A stretch of 64,000 bases of DNA from a bacterium (GTDB lineage Bacteria > Fidelibacterota > Fidelibacteria > Fidelibacterales > Fidelibacteraceae): contig OY781066.1 of assembly GCA_963676395.1 (NCBI GenBank), forward strand, positions 384,001 through 448,000, given 5' to 3'. The position numbers were made by a program. Positions 30,001-39,000 of this stretch are shown here, piece after piece. The stretch's first letter is position 1. Each line of letters starts with the position of its first letter.

Positions 30001-33000
30001 GGTGCTTTACTGGCCGATGTTGGCAAACTTCTTGAATACGAGATCGTAGATGGCAAATCTGTCAAATCAAGTTATGGGCGTTACCTCCGTCACCCCTTTT
30101 CAGGTGTTGGGTTGGCATTCAAACATGATATACCTGAAGAGGTCATGCATGTAATAGCGACTCACTCAAAAGAAGGCACCGGTGAAAAGCGCTCACCCGA
30201 ATCCATTATTTTCCATCATGCTGACTTTATTGACTTTGAATTGGTAAAATAAGCCAAACATAATTTTAAAAATGTCCTTAGCCCTTTCAATATGAAAGGG
30301 CTGTTTTTTTATTAATAATATTTTCCATCCAACAAAATTGGTCAGTTGTTTTATCACTTGTTATTCAAAAACGAATCATATAATTTCGAGTTACACATTG
30401 GAATACAGGAGCCGATGTGTATTAAACATAAAAACAGAAGGGAACTCAGTATGATGAATCAAGGGAAATTAGCATTTATTTTTCCGGGACAAGGCTCACA
30501 AAAAGTAGGCATGGGTTTGGATCTCTTTAAGAACTACCCAAAGGCAAAAAAAGTTTTCGAAAAAGCTGATACGGTTTTACAATATCCTCTTAGCAAACTT
30601 TGTTTTGAAGGTCCCGAAAAAGAACTAACCTTAACCGCAAACACACAACCGGCAATTTTAACCACCAGTATAGCTTTACTGAGGATATTGCAAGATAAAA
30701 TAGATATAAAACCGGATTTTGTAGCCGGACATAGCTTAGGTGAATACAGCGCTTTAGTATGTGCCGATGCCCTCAATTTCGACGATGCAATACTGGCCGT
30801 AAATAAGCGTGGCACTTATATGCAAAATGCCGTACCGGTTGGGGTTGGTAGCATGGCGGCAATTATCAAAATCAAAGAAGAAACAGTTCAAGAGTTTTGT
30901 GATAAGGTAAGCCGTAAAGATCATATAGTAGTCAATGCAAATATAAATTGTCCACAACAGTACGTGATCTCGGGACATACAAAGGCCGTACAAGAAGTCA
31001 TGGCTCTTGCAAAAGAAAATAGAGGAATAACCATCTCCCTAGCGGTAAGTGCTCCTTTCCATTCTCCCTTAATGCAAAAAGCAGCTGACGAGCTCTCAGC
31101 CTGGTTGGATACAGTCCAGTTTTCTGATTTAAACACTACATTGATAAACAATGCAGAAGCAGAACTTATTGACAAAGGTGACGATGCAAAAACCTCGCTT
31201 GTAAGACAAATGCAAGCATCGGTAAAATGGGAAGCCTCTATGCGAAAGCTTATCGATAAGGGTGTAACAACATTTGTTGAAATCGGTCCGGGTAAAGTTT
31301 TAAGTGGACTTATGAAACGAATCGACAAAAATGTAACAGTATTAAATGCCTTTGATTCTGATAGCCTTGAAGAAACAGTAAAGTTACTGAAATAGATCAA
31401 AGTATTTATTCCCTAACAAATACTTTTATGGGTTAGTATCTATGATTGAAACCGGTATAGACATTATCGAAATAAATAGAATCGAGGATTCTATCAAAAA
31501 TTCTGAATTCGTGAGAAAATATTTTCATCCGAAAGAAATAGCCTATTCAGAAGCAAAACAAAATAGTGCTCAACACTTTGCAGTGCGTTTTGCCGCCAAA
31601 GAAGCTGTTCGTAAAATATTATTATCTCATATTGATAAATTGAGATGGTCTGACAGCTGGATAGAAAATGACAAAACGGGAAAACCGATATTACATTTTT
31701 CAACTGCCATCAATCAAAAAATTAAAATCCATCACTCAAGCGTCAGCTTAAGTCATACAAAGGATACTGCGATCGCCATTGTCATTATGGATGTAACAAG
31801 CCATTAGTCCATCCAATAATCTTAACCATCTCACTCCCTATATTAGGGAGTAAGTCGTTATTTTATTACAAAGCATATTTTATTTTAGAGGATCATAATT
31901 GTCCGTAATTTTATTCCCTTAATATTCAACACATTAGGATGATTGATCGCAAATTGTTTATATCGAAATAATCCGTAATACATTGATCAATCCTACATTT
32001 TTGCATTTTTTTATTACATCATTGCATATCAGTGATGAAATAAACTGTTGACAACTTATGATTTAATTTATTATAATCTCATTGAGGCTTTTTATGTTTT
32101 TTTAAAAACATTACTAAGACATAAAAAACCTTAAACACACACACGGAGGAAAAAATGAAAGAACAGCTAATCAAACTAATCGCAGAAGAGTTAAGCGTAC
32201 CTGAGGAGAAAGTCACACTGGAAGCAAATATCCAGGATGACCTTGGTGCTGATTCTCTTGATGCAATCCAACTGATCATGACCATCGAAAACGAATTTGA
32301 TATTACCGTTCCCGAAGAAGAAGCGGAAAATCTTAAGGTGGTTAAAGATGTGTTGAAATATATCGAAGAAAATAAATAATCATTGTAAATAGTTGATCAA
32401 CTGATTTTCTTTTCTTGCTAGAGAAAGCTTTAACTTGTTGCATAATAATTTATTGACAATCATTGTAGCTTCGTTATTGTTAAACATCCAGTAAAGAAGA
32501 ATATTTTAATCAAAACATCATTTAATAAAAATAAACTATTTATTTTTTAATGGATGATGTTACCCATTAAAATTTACAGAAGAGATCAGTGATTTACAGC
32601 AAGCAACATGATTTTAATATTTCCAATATTTTTACTTAAAAGCAATATAATTCATTTTGCTCTAGGGATAAGCATATACAACTCTACCCTATCGTAAAAT
32701 ATTCTTGCATGATCAGGAAATATTCAACAATTATAATACCGATAAGGAATATATTATGGCAATAGATAAAGGATCATTTAAAGTTGTCTCCACAGGACGT
32801 TTTACCCCTGCGGGAGTTCTTACTAATAAGGACCTGGAAAAGATCGTAGATACATCAGATGAGTGGATTAGTTCAAGAACGGGAATAAAAGAACGTCGCA
32901 TAGCCAATGGCCAAACAACATCCGACTTAGCTACCTTGGCTGCAAAAAATGCAATTGAAAAAGTTGCTTACGATAAAAACAAGTTTGACATTATAATTGT

Positions 33001-36000: not shown

Positions 36001-39000
36001 TTATTTTGGAGGACTTAAAAACGCCAAATTCAAAAGAAAAGTCATTCCTGGAGATACCCTACGTTTAGAAGTAAAATTAACAAAAGTAAAAGCAAAATTC
36101 GGAGTTGGTACAGGCAAAGCATATGTGGGAGAAGAACTCGCATGTGAAGCAGAATTTATCTTCTCGTATATGTAAAAAATACCGTAAATAATAAAAAACC
36201 GGAGACATTATTCATCAATAGTGTTTCCGGTTTTGCAATGTAAGTTTCTTTCTGTTTAAGCACTACAAACTTAAAAAAAGAAAATTATTTTATCATTCTA
36301 GAGTTTATTGAAAAAATTAAAATAACAAGATCCCCTATATTTCATAAAATAAAATTAGCTAAGATTTTTATCCGATTCATACTGCGAGATCGATTCACGC
36401 ATTACACCTATTACATCATCTTGTGCTGCTTGAATGGCAACCTTTAAAGCATTTTTAAATGCATAAGCTGTTGATCTACCATGCGCTTTTATAATGATCT
36501 TATCATATCCAAAGATAGGTGCACCGCCATATTCTTCATAACTGGAAACCTTCATTATCTCTTTGATTCCCCCTGATAAACACAATAAACCTAATTTCCA
36601 GATCAGTTTACCCTTCATTGCCATCTTCGCAAGTTTTTTAACGGCTTCAGAGGTACCTTCGATGGTTTTCATGGCAATATTTCCGGTTAAACCTTCCGTT
36701 ACAACCACATCAGCCTTTCCTTTCATCAAATCATTACCTTCGATATTACCAATAAAATTAATATCGTCTCTAGAAGATAATAATTGATAAGCGGCTTTCA
36801 TTGTTTCGTTTCCCTTGTGTGACTCAGCTCCAATATTCAGTAATCCAACCGTTGGATTTTCAACTTTCAGGATTTTCTTCTTATAGCTGATACCCATATA
36901 TGCATAATGAACCAGATCATCAGGCGAGTTCACAACATTTGCTCCAATATCAAGCAACAATGAAAATATTTTACTTCTTTTTTGCTCATTAAGCGTTGGA
37001 TAAATAGTACCCAAAGCCGTGCGTCTTACTCCCGGTATGCGCTTTATTTGAAGCGCAACAGAAAGCACAACAGCGCCTGTACTTCCTGCTGAAACCATGG
37101 CATCTGCCCTACCTTCTCTTAACATCTTGGCTGCTAAACGAACTGAGGCATTGGGTTTTTCTTTAATGGCTACTTTGGGAGAATCCTCGTTAGTAATCAT
37201 TTCAGAGGTATGAACAATCTCTATTTGTTCTTCATTATATTTATGTTTTGTAAGCTCTTGTTTAATCTTGCTTTCATCCCCAACTAAAATTAAATGTGCA
37301 GGAGATTCCAGGGTCATTTGACAGGCGCCGGCAACCGTGATCCCGGGCGCATGATCTCCCCCCATTGCATCAATAACTATTCGAATTTTTGAATTAGACA
37401 TTTTTCCTCCATTGTGTGTTAGCAATAATCTAAGCCATTTTTATGCAGGGGTCTATATATTTTTTTGAGTAGTTGTCACTCTCAGTTCTTTATTTATTTC
37501 CAATTGCACTTATTTATAAAAATAATTAAATTACGCGTAATTGTCATTGTCGTTTACGATTCAAATTCTGGCGGATTTCAATTCATTACAATGAAACGAC
37601 AACCGACGCTCGTAAGAGCGGGGGTTGCTCCTCATTGTAAGGGTTTGCCAGAAACCCGAATCGTGCGGTTGTTAGTCCCCGCTTTTGACTAACAAAATAC
37701 TTATAAGCCAAAACCAGTCACTCATAATAAATATTTAGTTACTGATAGCTATTTCAAAATCAGCTTGAGCACGTGACATATTTATCTTTACCACTCTAAC
37801 ATTCAGTTTATCGCCCAATCTATATTTTTCACCTGACCTAAGGCCTGAAAGTTGATGATATTTTTTTTCATAATCCCAAATATCTGAAGGTAGAGAATCT
37901 CTACGGACATATCCCTCAACAAATATATTTTCCAGCTCAACCCAAAAACCACCGGGAGATACGCCTGAAATAATGCCAGGAAATACATCTCCCAAATGAT
38001 TCGATATATATCGCATTTGCTTGATCTTATGATACTCTCTTTCAGCTTCTAAAGCTCTCAGCTCAGATGCGGAACACTTTTTAGCGACTTCTTTTAACTT
38101 GCTTTTTAGCTCGGGATTATAAAATTGCCCCTTGATGTACAACTTTAACAAACGATGAACTATCAAATCGGGATATCGTCTGATAGGTGATGTAAAATGC
38201 GTATAATCATCAAAGGCTAGACCGAAATGTCCCACAGGTTTTACACTATACTTGGCTTTGGTCATTGTACGAAGAGCAAGCTTCATGACATAAGGAGAAT
38301 CATTTTGTTTGAGAATTGATTTTAAAGCTTTCTGAAACTTCTTAGATGTAATAGGCATTCCGAAAAAAGTTACATTCAATCCAAAAGCATCCATTAATGC
38401 AAACCATTCATAAATACTGTCCGCCTCGGGAATATCGTGGATTCTATAAATAAAGGGGACGGTTGTCCCACGAGATCGAGCAAACTTTGCAACACTTTGA
38501 TTTGCCAACAACATAAATTCTTCAACAATATGATGTGACCACATTCTTTCCCGTAAGGTAATACTGATAGGAATGCCTTTATCATTCAATTTATATTGCG
38601 GTTCAGGCAAATCGAAATCAATACTTCCTTCATTTATTCGCTTTTTGTTCAATAACTTTGCCAATTCACTCATACGAATTAATTCTTTTACATAATCCCC
38701 ATCGCCTTTATCAAGAATGCTTTGAGCTTCAGTGTAAGTGAATCGTCGTTTACTGTGAATAATGGAATTGAACACATCATACTTGATACATTCCCCGGTT
38801 TTTGTTACGGTCATCAAAACCGACATGGCAAGTCTGTCTTGATTCGGTTGAAGCGAACATAATTCGGTAGAAAGTTTTTCAGGGAGCATATGCACAACGT
38901 GATCTGTAAAATAAACAGATGTCCCTCTTAAAATAGCATCATCATCTAGCGGAGTATTTTCACAAACATAATGAGCTACATCGGCAATATGGACCCCCAA

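Follow-up and report, generated by a model that had tools for sequence, protein, structure and literature searches.

Gene content suggests fatty-acid auxotrophy in an uncultured Marinimicrobia bacterium with an intact fab operon lacking an enoyl-ACP reductase

Results

The fab operon and its surroundings

The window, the whole 64,000-nucleotide stretch of DNA analysed here, carries between 30.3 and 37.4 kb the genes fabD-acpS-acpP-fabH-fabG-fabF-fabZ, all intact, followed by plsX facing the operon (Table 1). Each of the seven scores as a true orthologue, above the cut-off of its NCBIfam or TIGR model, and this confirms the operon that a preliminary description had placed here. The fabD reading frame opens at a TTG, but the profile match begins only at residue 41, which makes the earlier start at 30451 plausible; similarly, fabZ probably starts near 35762, as its match begins at residue 21. 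Catalytic motifs are kept throughout, including the Cys (NAACTGF), His (HQAN) and Asn (GNTS) of FabH and the Cys163, His302 and His339 motifs of FabF, the only KS I/II of the genome. A phmmer search of the genome found no second ACP, leaving AcpP as the only one detected.

Table 1. Features of the fab locus (window positions unless the contig is named)
Feature	Position	Strand	Evidence
HD-domain gene, left flank of operon	29725..30252	+	
fabD, malonyl-CoA:ACP transacylase	30346..31395	+	TIGR00128 356.4 bits (cut-off 260.9); GHSLG and GQGSQ motifs
acpS, holo-ACP synthase	31442..31807	+	PF01648 51 bits; TIGR00516 74.6 bits (cut-off 59.8)
acpP, acyl carrier protein	32155..32379	+	NF002148 93 bits (cut-off 71); DSL motif
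fabH, ketoacyl-ACP synthase III	32705..33694	+	NF006829 378 bits (cut-off 249)
fabH-fabG spacer, 57 bp	33695..33751	.	site of fabK in 7 genus members; no relic
fabG, 3-oxoacyl-ACP reductase	33752..34498	+	TIGR01830 335 bits (cut-off 298); NNAG and YSASK motifs
fabF, ketoacyl-ACP synthase II	34510..35748	+	TIGR03150 568 bits (cut-off 494)
fabZ, 3-hydroxyacyl-ACP dehydratase	35702..36175	+	NF000582 168 bits (cut-off 113); His (GHFP) and Glu (PGVLIIE) motifs
plsX, acyl-ACP:phosphate acyltransferase	36355..37425	-	TIGR00182 333 bits (cut-off 243); convergent with operon
rnr (RNase R), right flank	37735..39828	-	TIGR02063 687 bits; species-tree marker
plsX, second copy	contig 159894-160937		

Loss of the enoyl-ACP reductase

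Profile searches, and tblastn for FabK, show that the genome has no recognisable FabK, FabI, FabL or FabV, as had been claimed. The FabV profile gave no match at E<=10 in six frames of the whole genome. The seven weak FabK/NMO matches in the genome-wide six-frame search were IMPDH, DHODH, PdxS, HisF and GlpQ, and the FabK of a relative, used as a tblastn query against the whole genome, reached a best E value of only 0.7. FabI and FabL models were absent from the best 25 NCBIfam matches of each of the nine short-chain dehydrogenases (SDRs) other than FabG. Eight of these nine are intact, all with the classical YxxxK motif, and the ninth is broken by a stop codon. None has the Yx6K active-site arrangement of FabI and FabL, and none adjoins lipid genes. 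The earlier suggestion that an unrecognised FabI or FabL might hide among the SDRs is thus not supported for enzymes of that type, but the eight classical SDRs are still candidate reductases.

Firmicutes-type fab clusters encode FabK within the operon. The same is seen in seven of the 18 operons mapped in this genus, where fabK separates fabH from fabG; in 11, including that of this genome, fabH directly abuts fabG. One relative's FabK (L033:8259-9191, 310 aa) scores 438.6 bits on TIGR03151, the six intact operonic copies range from 434 to 450 bits on this model, and the copy in G017 is split by a frameshift. The basal genus members have this flavin enoyl-ACP reductase gene between fabH and fabG; in this genome it has been cleanly excised from the junction. 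The statement that most relatives carry FabK needs qualification: 14 of 21 have an NMO match, but only seven of the 14 have a true operonic FabK, and the other seven have a different paralogue (364-373 aa, PF03060 176-185 bits). This paralogue lies elsewhere in the genome in seven of the ten other fabK-less genomes; profile search and tblastn found neither gene nor relic of it here.

All of these absences rest on six-frame HMM searches of the entire contig. It is highly improbable that they reflect assembly gaps or poor search sensitivity, with an ordinary reductase or carboxylase gene present after all. Marker-based completeness is 95.3%, short of 100%, but the assembly is a single contig of 2,335,625 bp whose GC-skew extremes stand half a genome apart, the fabH-fabG adjacency is common to 11 independent assemblies, and the Biotin_carb_C and NMO profiles, as positive controls, matched in 13-14 of 14 reference genomes. 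A relative's FabK, the second NMO paralogue and a fused acetyl-CoA carboxylase (ACC), used as tblastn queries, also found nothing.

Malonyl-CoA supply

The reported lack of biotin carboxylase and AccA-D was borne out. Biotin_carb_C had no match at E<=1 in six frames of the whole contig. ATP-grasp matches were rejected as biotin carboxylase, being CarB, Ddl, a CPS-like protein and RimK, and the sole Carboxyl_trans/ACCA match was rejected as an ACC subunit, being of MmdA type. We also reproduced the count of Biotin_carb_C among the other genus genomes of at least 85% completeness, two of ten. However, biotin carboxylase is missing from all seven genus genomes whose fab operon is complete and includes fabK. 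Malonyl-CoA is therefore probably made by another route in this genus, and the claim that this cell cannot start synthesis for want of ACC is weak. Loss of ACC is genus-wide, an alternative malonyl-CoA source is likely, and that source is probably the methylmalonyl-CoA decarboxylase complex. The genes for a mutase, an epimerase, the MmdA carboxyltransferase, a biotin carrier and the Na+ pump form one operon (contig 449178-454810) starting just past the end of the window, and an Mmd-type transferase occurs in 32 of 33 family genomes. The Thermotoga maritima control likewise has no Biotin_carb_C match, yet has FabF, FabD, FabK-like and Carboxyl_trans matches. In G022 and G015 the contig of the NMO paralogue carries a long ORF in which biotin-carboxylase and carboxyltransferase domains are combined; the ORF of G022 adjoins the paralogue and encodes a fused ACC of 1836 aa. 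A tblastn search with the relative's sequence found neither gene nor relic of the fused ACC in this genome.

Condition of the retained genes and a possible replacement reductase

The retained fab genes show no sign of decay beyond the missing reductase. At columns that are otherwise invariant, this genome has 27 private substitutions and two FabK-bearing singletons have 29 and 33, counted over 9-15 genomes per gene with G016, G017, G022 and the two outgroup genomes left out. FabF has 11 private substitutions, all conservative except E276S and H324Y. As the terminal branch of this genome (0.18) is not long either, there is no sign of relaxed selection. The intact, normally evolving genes argue against auxotrophy, and simple decay does not explain them.

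Their state also favours a pathway that still works, with an unrecognised enoyl-ACP reductase and malonyl-CoA from the decarboxylase complex, which would either pass a carboxyl group from methylmalonyl-CoA on to acetyl-CoA or run in reverse, driven by Na+; the FabK-complete relatives seem to need such a source. The missing step might be carried out by a YhdH/AcuI-family MDR protein, one of the eight classical SDRs, or the Bcd-type acyl-CoA dehydrogenase that the genome encodes together with EtfAB. The YhdH-family gene (contig 1138001-1139002, TIGR02823 426 bits, cut-off 297) occurs in this genome only among 33 of the family and could encode a replacement; those of its relatives with solved structures are acrylyl-CoA reductases, a kind of enoyl-thioester reductase. 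Against this, none of 80 metagenomic loci (621 kb) with homologues 51-87% identical has a neighbouring fab gene, none shares the flanks seen here, which fits a transferred accessory gene, and the protein scores only 45 bits against mitochondrial enoyl-ACP reductase. Together with the SDR motifs and locations, and with the lipoate genes and sister genome described below, this leads us to consider a working pathway unlikely, if well worth weighing.

Lipoate genes and relatives that lost the pathway

At the syntenic site lipA survives as a relic of residues 1-78, the remainder being deleted; the reading frame ends at a TAG inside the radical-SAM CX3CX2C motif. The lipoate-salvage ligase LplA is present (423 bits, cut-off 280); of the 22 genomes of the genus only three, G019, G025 and the present one, have a match of this type. 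The relic and the gain of LplA suit a cell that no longer produces octanoyl-ACP.

In the RNase R tree G019 (95% complete) is the sister of this genome (G000), with SH-aLRT support of 100. Profile searches found no FabF, FabD, FabK, AccC or LipA in it and no ACP above cut-off, while DegV, a four-copy ligase array, PlsX and LplA are retained. The sister relation rests on a single protein, and the ranking of ligase identities disagrees with it, placing G025 and G009 (83%) before G019 (79%). If the reductase was lost in an ancestor shared with G019, the operon has long been retained without it. In G007 the stretch from fabD to plsX is precisely deleted, which leaves 466 bp between the HD-domain gene and the gene for RNase R. 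Relatives that lost the fab operon altogether must build their membranes from scavenged fatty acids.

Scavenging genes

The scavenging genes listed previously were all found: FakA, two DegV (FakB) proteins, two PlsX, two PlsY and five tandem AMP-binding ligases. FakA, both DegV genes and one plsY form one operon. Their supposed expansion in this genome does not hold, as Fak genes and ligase arrays are genus-wide (DegV in 21 of 21 other genus genomes) and so are a genus trait rather than a response of this genome.

Discussion

The locus encodes a genuine type II fatty-acid synthase minus the last enzyme of each elongation round. As all known reductase classes are absent, ACP loading, condensation, keto reduction and dehydration should be possible, but reduction of trans-2-enoyl-ACP should not, and no saturated chain would be released. 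With the reductase lost, membranes are most likely built from scavenged fatty acids, and we infer from gene content, with a modest preference over the other readings, that the organism is probably a fatty-acid auxotroph. Free fatty acids, probably imported from outside, would pass through the FakB-FakB-FakA-PlsY operon to acyl-phosphate and lysophosphatidate, PlsX would hand acyl groups to ACP, and the five tandem acyl-CoA ligases may provide a second activation route. The block in completion and the life on scavenged fatty acids, both put forward in the preliminary description, are supported, and strengthened by the excision of fabK, the absent second NMO, the lipA relic with LplA, the total loss in G019 and the deletion in G007; the intact, normally evolving fab genes do not fit simple decay.

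The operon may have been disabled recently and not yet decayed, or it may be retained for ACP, AcpS, PlsX and partial reactions. In the second case, a bulk auxotroph would use ACP, AcpS and PlsX to process scavenged acyl chains, and FabF, FabG and perhaps FabZ could add one condensation to give 3-hydroxyacyl-ACP for ceramides or other amide-linked lipids. This would explain why intact genes have been kept so long with no reductase beside them. A serine palmitoyltransferase-like gene directly upstream of a KdsR-like reductase gene points to sphingolipid synthesis, although both matches fall under curated cut-offs (519 against 640 bits; 306 against 400). The genus lacks lipid A genes (LpxC in none of 22 genomes), and the two PlsX copies would also suit such a role. 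However, keeping FabH and FabD would still require malonyl-ACP and is unnecessary for such a role, and G019 survives without these genes. We therefore regard retention for partial reactions as doubtful.

The phylum has one cultured member, Fidelibacter multiformis IA91, which is a different organism from ours. It has a 2.79-Mb genome of 45.6% G+C, depends on other cells for muropeptides, a component of its envelope, requires yeast extract and contains C16:0, C18:1, C18:0 and C17:0 fatty acids; the fatty acid and lipid passages of its description make no statement on fatty-acid auxotrophy (PMC11652737). In g2, the genus of our set that resembles it in genome size, AccC is found in four of six genomes and LpxC in all six, with only a weak FabF-like match.

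The Na+-translocating methylmalonyl-CoA decarboxylase has been reported to run in reverse and carboxylate acetyl-CoA (Dimroth & Hilpert 1984, Biochemistry 23:5360, cited in PMC7274780). Here too a carboxyltransferase, a biotin carrier and an OAD_beta pump lie beside mutase and epimerase genes, but a role as the cell's malonyl-CoA source would go beyond the known system. FakA, two FakB, PlsX and PlsY are present, as in the FakA/FakB-PlsX-PlsY route by which Firmicutes such as E. faecalis and S. aureus use exogenous fatty acids; unlike in those bacteria, they occur in an FCB-group diderm and are combined with arrays of three to five tandem acyl-CoA ligases.

A close parallel is with host-adapted Lactobacillus, where a preprint describes FASII loss or single-gene inactivation within one clade, and where strains of L. 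crispatus whose otherwise syntenic fab operon has a single inactivated gene are auxotrophic for fatty acids (bioRxiv 10.64898/2026.04.23.720460). In both groups some genomes keep a syntenic operon and others lack it wholly, and the dependence on exogenous fatty acids shown there would apply here. The missing step differs, being fabH in Lactobacillus and the enoyl reductase here, with ACC absent genus-wide. The organisms differ as well: the Lactobacillus case concerns host-associated monoderm Firmicutes and was traced with isotopes, whereas ours is read from the genes of an uncultured environmental diderm of the Marinimicrobia.

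The fab operon

The preliminary description placed a fab operon at this locus, and ORF listing with Pfam and NCBIfam scans confirmed it: seven genes lie on the plus strand (see table). FabD, FabH, FabG, FabF and FabZ each match an equivalog or subfamily model above its curated cut-off, and the type II fatty-acid synthase (FASII) set of FabD, ACP, AcpS, FabH, FabG, FabZ and FabF is complete, with its catalytic motifs kept. Model scores and motifs identify these as real FASII genes and reject a polyketide or pigment cluster. The closest relatives of FabF among named genomes are from Candidatus Neomarinimicrobiota (80% and 78% identical).

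Inside the operon, non-coding spacers of about 330-350 bp flank acpP. Relatives' operons have spacers at the same sites, broadly alike in length (about 120-440 bp), and they may have a regulatory role. Just 5' of the fab region are two membrane-related genes, one CvpA-like and one LPG_synthase_TM (flippase-like).

Coordinates of the genes and sites discussed, with the evidence for each
Feature	Coordinates	Numbering	Strand	Evidence or content
CvpA-like and LPG_synthase_TM genes	26925-28621	window		
fabD	30346/30451-31395	window	+	ORF listing, Pfam/NCBIfam; motif GHSLG
acpS	31442-31807	window	+	ORF listing, Pfam/NCBIfam; over curated cut-off of matching NCBIfam model
spacer 5' of acpP	31808-32154	window		non-coding
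acpP	32155-32379	window	+	NCBIfam model over curated cut-off; DSL motif
spacer 3' of acpP	32380-32704	window		non-coding
fabH	32705-33694	window	+	NCBIfam over curated cut-off; catalytic Cys/His/Asn
fabG	33752-34498	window	+	NCBIfam over curated cut-off; NNAG and YSASK
fabF	34510-35748	window	+	NCBIfam over curated cut-off; Cys163/His302/His339
fabZ	35702-36175	window	+	NCBIfam over curated cut-off; His/Glu
plsX	36355-37425	window	convergent with fab operon	RNase R gene next
DegV-DegV-FakA-PlsY operon	632830-637190	contig		FakA by Dak2, FakA-like_M and FakA-like_C domains
YhdH/AcuI-family acrylyl-CoA reductase gene (MDR)	1138001-1139002	contig, outside window		TIGR02823 426 bits (cut-off 297)
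five tandem AMP-binding ligases	1622463-1631640	contig		
SDR pseudogene	1637032-1637748	contig, outside window		in-frame TAA inside gene
lplA (lipoate-protein ligase, salvage)	1663339-1664319	contig		TIGR00545 423 bits
serine palmitoyltransferase-like gene, then KdsR-like reductase gene	2026647-2028781	contig, outside window		519 bits (cut-off 640); 306 bits (cut-off 400)
lipA relic	2228037-2228270	contig, outside window	-	residues 1-78 only
Mmd operon				mutase, epimerase, MmdA-type carboxyltransferase, biotin carrier, OAD_beta Na+ pump

Enoyl-ACP reductases

The genome is a single contig of 2,335,625 bp with a marker completeness of 95.3%, and the extremes of its cumulative GC skew lie half a genome apart, as expected of a complete circular chromosome. 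Searches of its full length in all six frames found no FabK, the NMO model (PF03060) giving only seven weak matches, to IMPDH, a fused DHODH, PdxS, HisF and GlpQ. They gave no match to FabV at E<=10 and none to OYE-type reductases, and tblastn with a relative's FabK found no relic in this genome (best E 0.7). With the adh_short_C2 model we recovered the ten SDRs that a phmmer search with FabG had found, and one further weak match under the threshold. Among the best 25 NCBIfam matches of the nine SDRs besides FabG there were generic SDR models only, and neither FabI nor FabL. Eight of the nine are intact, all with the classical YxxxK motif, and the ninth is a pseudogene. The FabI-like Yx6K motif never falls at the catalytic position, and none of the nine lies beside lipid genes. 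The suggestion that one of these SDRs is an unrecognised FabI or FabL finds no support here, and the claim that the genome has no recognisable enoyl-ACP reductase (FabI/FabL, FabK or FabV) stands.

One relative encodes a 310-aa FabK (TIGR03151, 438.6 bits) between fabH and fabG, and fabK occupies this position in 7 of the 18 operons mapped in the genus (genomes G011, G012, G016, G017, G020, G021 and G026). In the other 11, including the one studied here, fabH directly adjoins fabG, with a spacer of 57 bp in this genome. Of the ten other genomes without fabK, seven have a second NMO protein, encoded on a different contig from the operon (364-373 aa; PF03060 176-185 bits; FabK model only about 127 bits). 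Its gene in G018 resembled a split pseudogene, but the apparent split is a scaffold gap of N between exact 126-bp repeats, so the gene is intact. In G022 (L063:5723-12426) a 373-aa NMO-type reductase adjoins a single-chain acetyl-CoA carboxylase (ACC) of 1836 aa that combines biotin carboxylase, carrier and carboxyltransferase, and the pairing recurs in G015 (contig C120). Together the two proteins would supply both functions missing from the fab operons of these genomes. Neither the second NMO gene nor the fused ACC, intact or as a relic, was found in our genome, where the syntenic site is at about contig 1,012,000-1,019,000.

Source of malonyl-CoA

The preliminary description had also argued that synthesis cannot start without ACC. 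The absence itself holds. Biotin_carb_C gave no match at E<=1 in a six-frame search of the whole genome, the control being positive in 13 of 14 reference genomes. The CPSase_L_D2 (ATP-grasp) matches are CarB, Ddl, a CPS-like ATP-grasp protein and RimK, with no biotin carboxylase among them. The single Carboxyl_trans/ACCA match in the genome is an MmdA-type transferase, and a biotin-dependent ACC made up of biotin carboxylase, BCCP and carboxyltransferase was not found as a source of malonyl-CoA. What is weakened is the inference: 18 of the 21 other genomes of the genus have no biotin carboxylase either. Among them are all seven whose operon is complete with FabK (two of these are assemblies of 2 and 5 contigs), and absence of ACC alone therefore cannot mean absence of synthesis. 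Thermotoga maritima, used as a control, has no Biotin_carb_C match and has matches for FabF, FabD, a FabK-like protein and Carboxyl_trans.

A plausible source, judged from gene content, is the Na+-translocating methylmalonyl-CoA decarboxylase (Mmd), which might provide malonyl-CoA by passing a carboxyl group from methylmalonyl-CoA to acetyl-CoA or by Na+-driven reversal. Its alpha subunit (PF01039 670 bits; best model TIGR01117 mmdA, 830 bits, under its 999 cut-off), beta Na+ pump (TIGR01109 511 bits; cut-off 191) and gamma biotin carrier (Biotin_lipoyl domain) are encoded in one operon with methylmalonyl-CoA mutase and epimerase; a 131-aa ORF between the alpha and gamma genes, which might be the small delta subunit, has no family match. 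Dimroth and Hilpert (1984) reportedly described the reversal of this pump with carboxylation of acetyl-CoA. A malonyl-CoA synthetase among the ligases was rejected, because their scores on its model (160-179 bits) stay far under the cut-off of 558. Our literature search found no paper on Marinimicrobia combining fatty acid biosynthesis and acetyl-CoA carboxylase; a search on organisms without ACC returned nothing apparently relevant, judging by titles and the opening lines of abstracts, and a broad one on decarboxylase reversal returned unrelated ACC work only. A complete elongation cycle without biotin carboxylase in the relatives poses a testable question, that of an ATP-free route to malonyl-CoA.

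State of the fab genes and candidate reductases

The serious, if rather unlikely, rival to fatty-acid auxotrophy is a functional pathway in which a cryptic reductase closes the cycle and Mmd provides the malonyl-CoA. The supply side of this explanation draws on the FabK-complete relatives without biotin carboxylase and on the Mmd-type carboxyltransferase present in 32 of the 33 genomes of the family. The condition of the fab genes also argues against auxotrophy, as none of the seven shows decay. They carry 27 private substitutions at otherwise invariant columns, and two singletons that have FabK carry 29 and 33. Each gene was compared across 9-15 genomes, a set without the two outgroup genomes and without G016, G017 and G022, whose fab genes are frameshifted or split. 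The substitutions in FabF are mostly conservative, and the terminal branch of this genome in a quick tree of the concatenated fab genes (0.18) is inside the range of the other branches. In that tree the operons of G009 and G025 are near-identical, yet their RNase R genes fall in separate clades (loci L043, L057, L174 and L177), which may reflect bin chimerism (a binning error) or recombination.

For the reductase, the candidates are the eight intact SDRs, a Bcd-EtfAB system and a YhdH/AcuI-family gene found in this genome alone of the 33. The closest solved structures to its product are 1xa0, YhfP, YhdH and AcuI (226-279 bits), and by family assignment it would reduce an enoyl thioester. However, its similarity to the mitochondrial enoyl-ACP reductase is remote, and as a member of fab clusters elsewhere it had to be rejected, with fab neighbours at none of 80 metagenomic homologous loci. 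The flanks that the gene has here were not found around any of these 80 homologues; because homologues up to 87% identical lie in unrelated contexts, it was probably acquired horizontally. A second MDR gene lies among glycosyltransferases. The Bcd-type acyl-CoA dehydrogenase with EtfAB occurs alongside butyrate kinase and phosphate butyryltransferase, a combination that suggests a role in short-chain CoA metabolism and not in reactions on ACP.

In its most specific form, this explanation has the Mmd complex making malonyl-CoA without ATP or biotin carboxylase and the horizontally acquired YhdH/AcuI-type MDR closing the cycle. We regard that combination as highly improbable. If true, bacteria would have one more class of enoyl-ACP reductase in addition to FabI, FabL, FabK and FabV, and the Mmd route would also explain the seven FabK-complete relatives that lack the carboxylase.

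Lipoate synthesis and loss of fab genes in relatives

Lipoyl synthase needs an octanoyl group, normally from FASII. Intact LipA, which makes lipoate de novo from octanoyl-ACP, was not found in this genome. At a site syntenic with the intact lipA of G026 there is a relic with a TAG inside the radical-SAM CX3CX2C motif, its 3' two-thirds deleted and replaced by other DNA. Over its 78 residues it is 63-67% identical to four FabK-group genomes, compared with 76-85% for the intact LipA of G022, and so has been drifting for some time, though not long. An LplA-type match occurs in just 3 of the 22 genomes of the genus (this one, G019 and G025). The lipA relic together with LplA is an independent sign that de novo fatty-acid synthesis has been given up.

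A quick maximum-likelihood tree of RNase R makes G019 the sister of our genome (100 SH-aLRT), a relation that rests on this one protein. In G019, which is 95% complete, FabF, FabD, FabK, AccC and LipA are all missing and no ACP reaches the cut-off; two DegV, one PlsX, LplA and a set of four tandem ligases remain. In G007 (L091) 466 bp separate the RNase R gene from the HD gene, which in our genome borders the fab operon, from which we conclude that the fabD-plsX stretch was cleanly deleted. The RNase R of G007 is nearly identical to that of the FabK-bearing G021, which may mean that the operon varies within a species or that a contig was placed in the wrong bin. G010, a fragmented assembly, has no fab genes either. 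The missing FabF of G008 is probably an assembly gap, as its fabD and acpP sit at a contig end. The genus shows graded loss: some members have a complete pathway, others one without its reductase, and others have lost every fab gene.

The sister genus g2 (G001-G006; L062) includes one single-contig genome of 2,788,509 bp. In this genus FabF is matched only weakly, at about 288 bits and inside a non-canonical KS/KR/DH cluster. The genus is without FabK, and has AccC in four of six genomes and LpxC in all six.

Predicted fatty-acid uptake and envelope genes

A predicted route for exogenous fatty acids is encoded. FakA, two FakB (DegV), two PlsX, two PlsY (one of them in the Fak operon) and five tandem ligases were all found, as the preliminary description had listed them. 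They are not an expansion of this genome, however. DegV is present in all 21 other genomes of the genus, and ligase arrays of 3 or 4 copies are common across it, in FabK-bearing members too. No second, atypical ACP was found among the ORFs beside the second plsX.

The earlier remark on lipid A loss agrees with our searches, LpxC being present in none of the 22 genomes of the genus and in all 11 of two other genera. A serine palmitoyltransferase-like gene followed by a KdsR-like reductase gene is likely, on model scores under both cut-offs, to be a sphingolipid operon in this genus without LpxC.

Discussion

The claim of fatty-acid auxotrophy thus stands in part. The argument from ACC and that from expanded genes are weakened, while the case for unfinished elongation is strengthened by the loss of both reductase types and by the lipA relic. 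On balance, and with modest confidence, our best reading is that the cell no longer finishes fatty acids and is a predicted auxotroph. We base this on several observations: both reductase types are cleanly lost, lipA is a relic and LplA is present, relatives live without any fab genes, and there is a published precedent in auxotrophic L. crispatus, whose fab operon looks intact but is disabled (bioRxiv 10.64898/2026.04.23.720460). If the cell is indeed auxotrophic, its fab operon would have been either recently disabled or retained for partial functions.

With no lipid A genes, no ACC and graded loss of fab genes, the genus appears to rely on its neighbours to supply several parts of the envelope. 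The sole cultured member of the phylum, Fidelibacter multiformis IA91, has a 2.79-Mb genome of 45.6% G+C and requires muropeptides and yeast extract (PMC11652737). Our genome is from the same phylum but from a different organism. The predicted dependence of the genus gives a concrete hint for cultivation, free fatty acids and lipoate as supplements. The genus also offers a natural series for how free-living bacteria dismantle a core pathway. Host-associated bacteria are known to become fatty-acid auxotrophs by losing FASII; what is new is that this has probably happened, stage by stage, in a diderm lineage that lives free in the environment.
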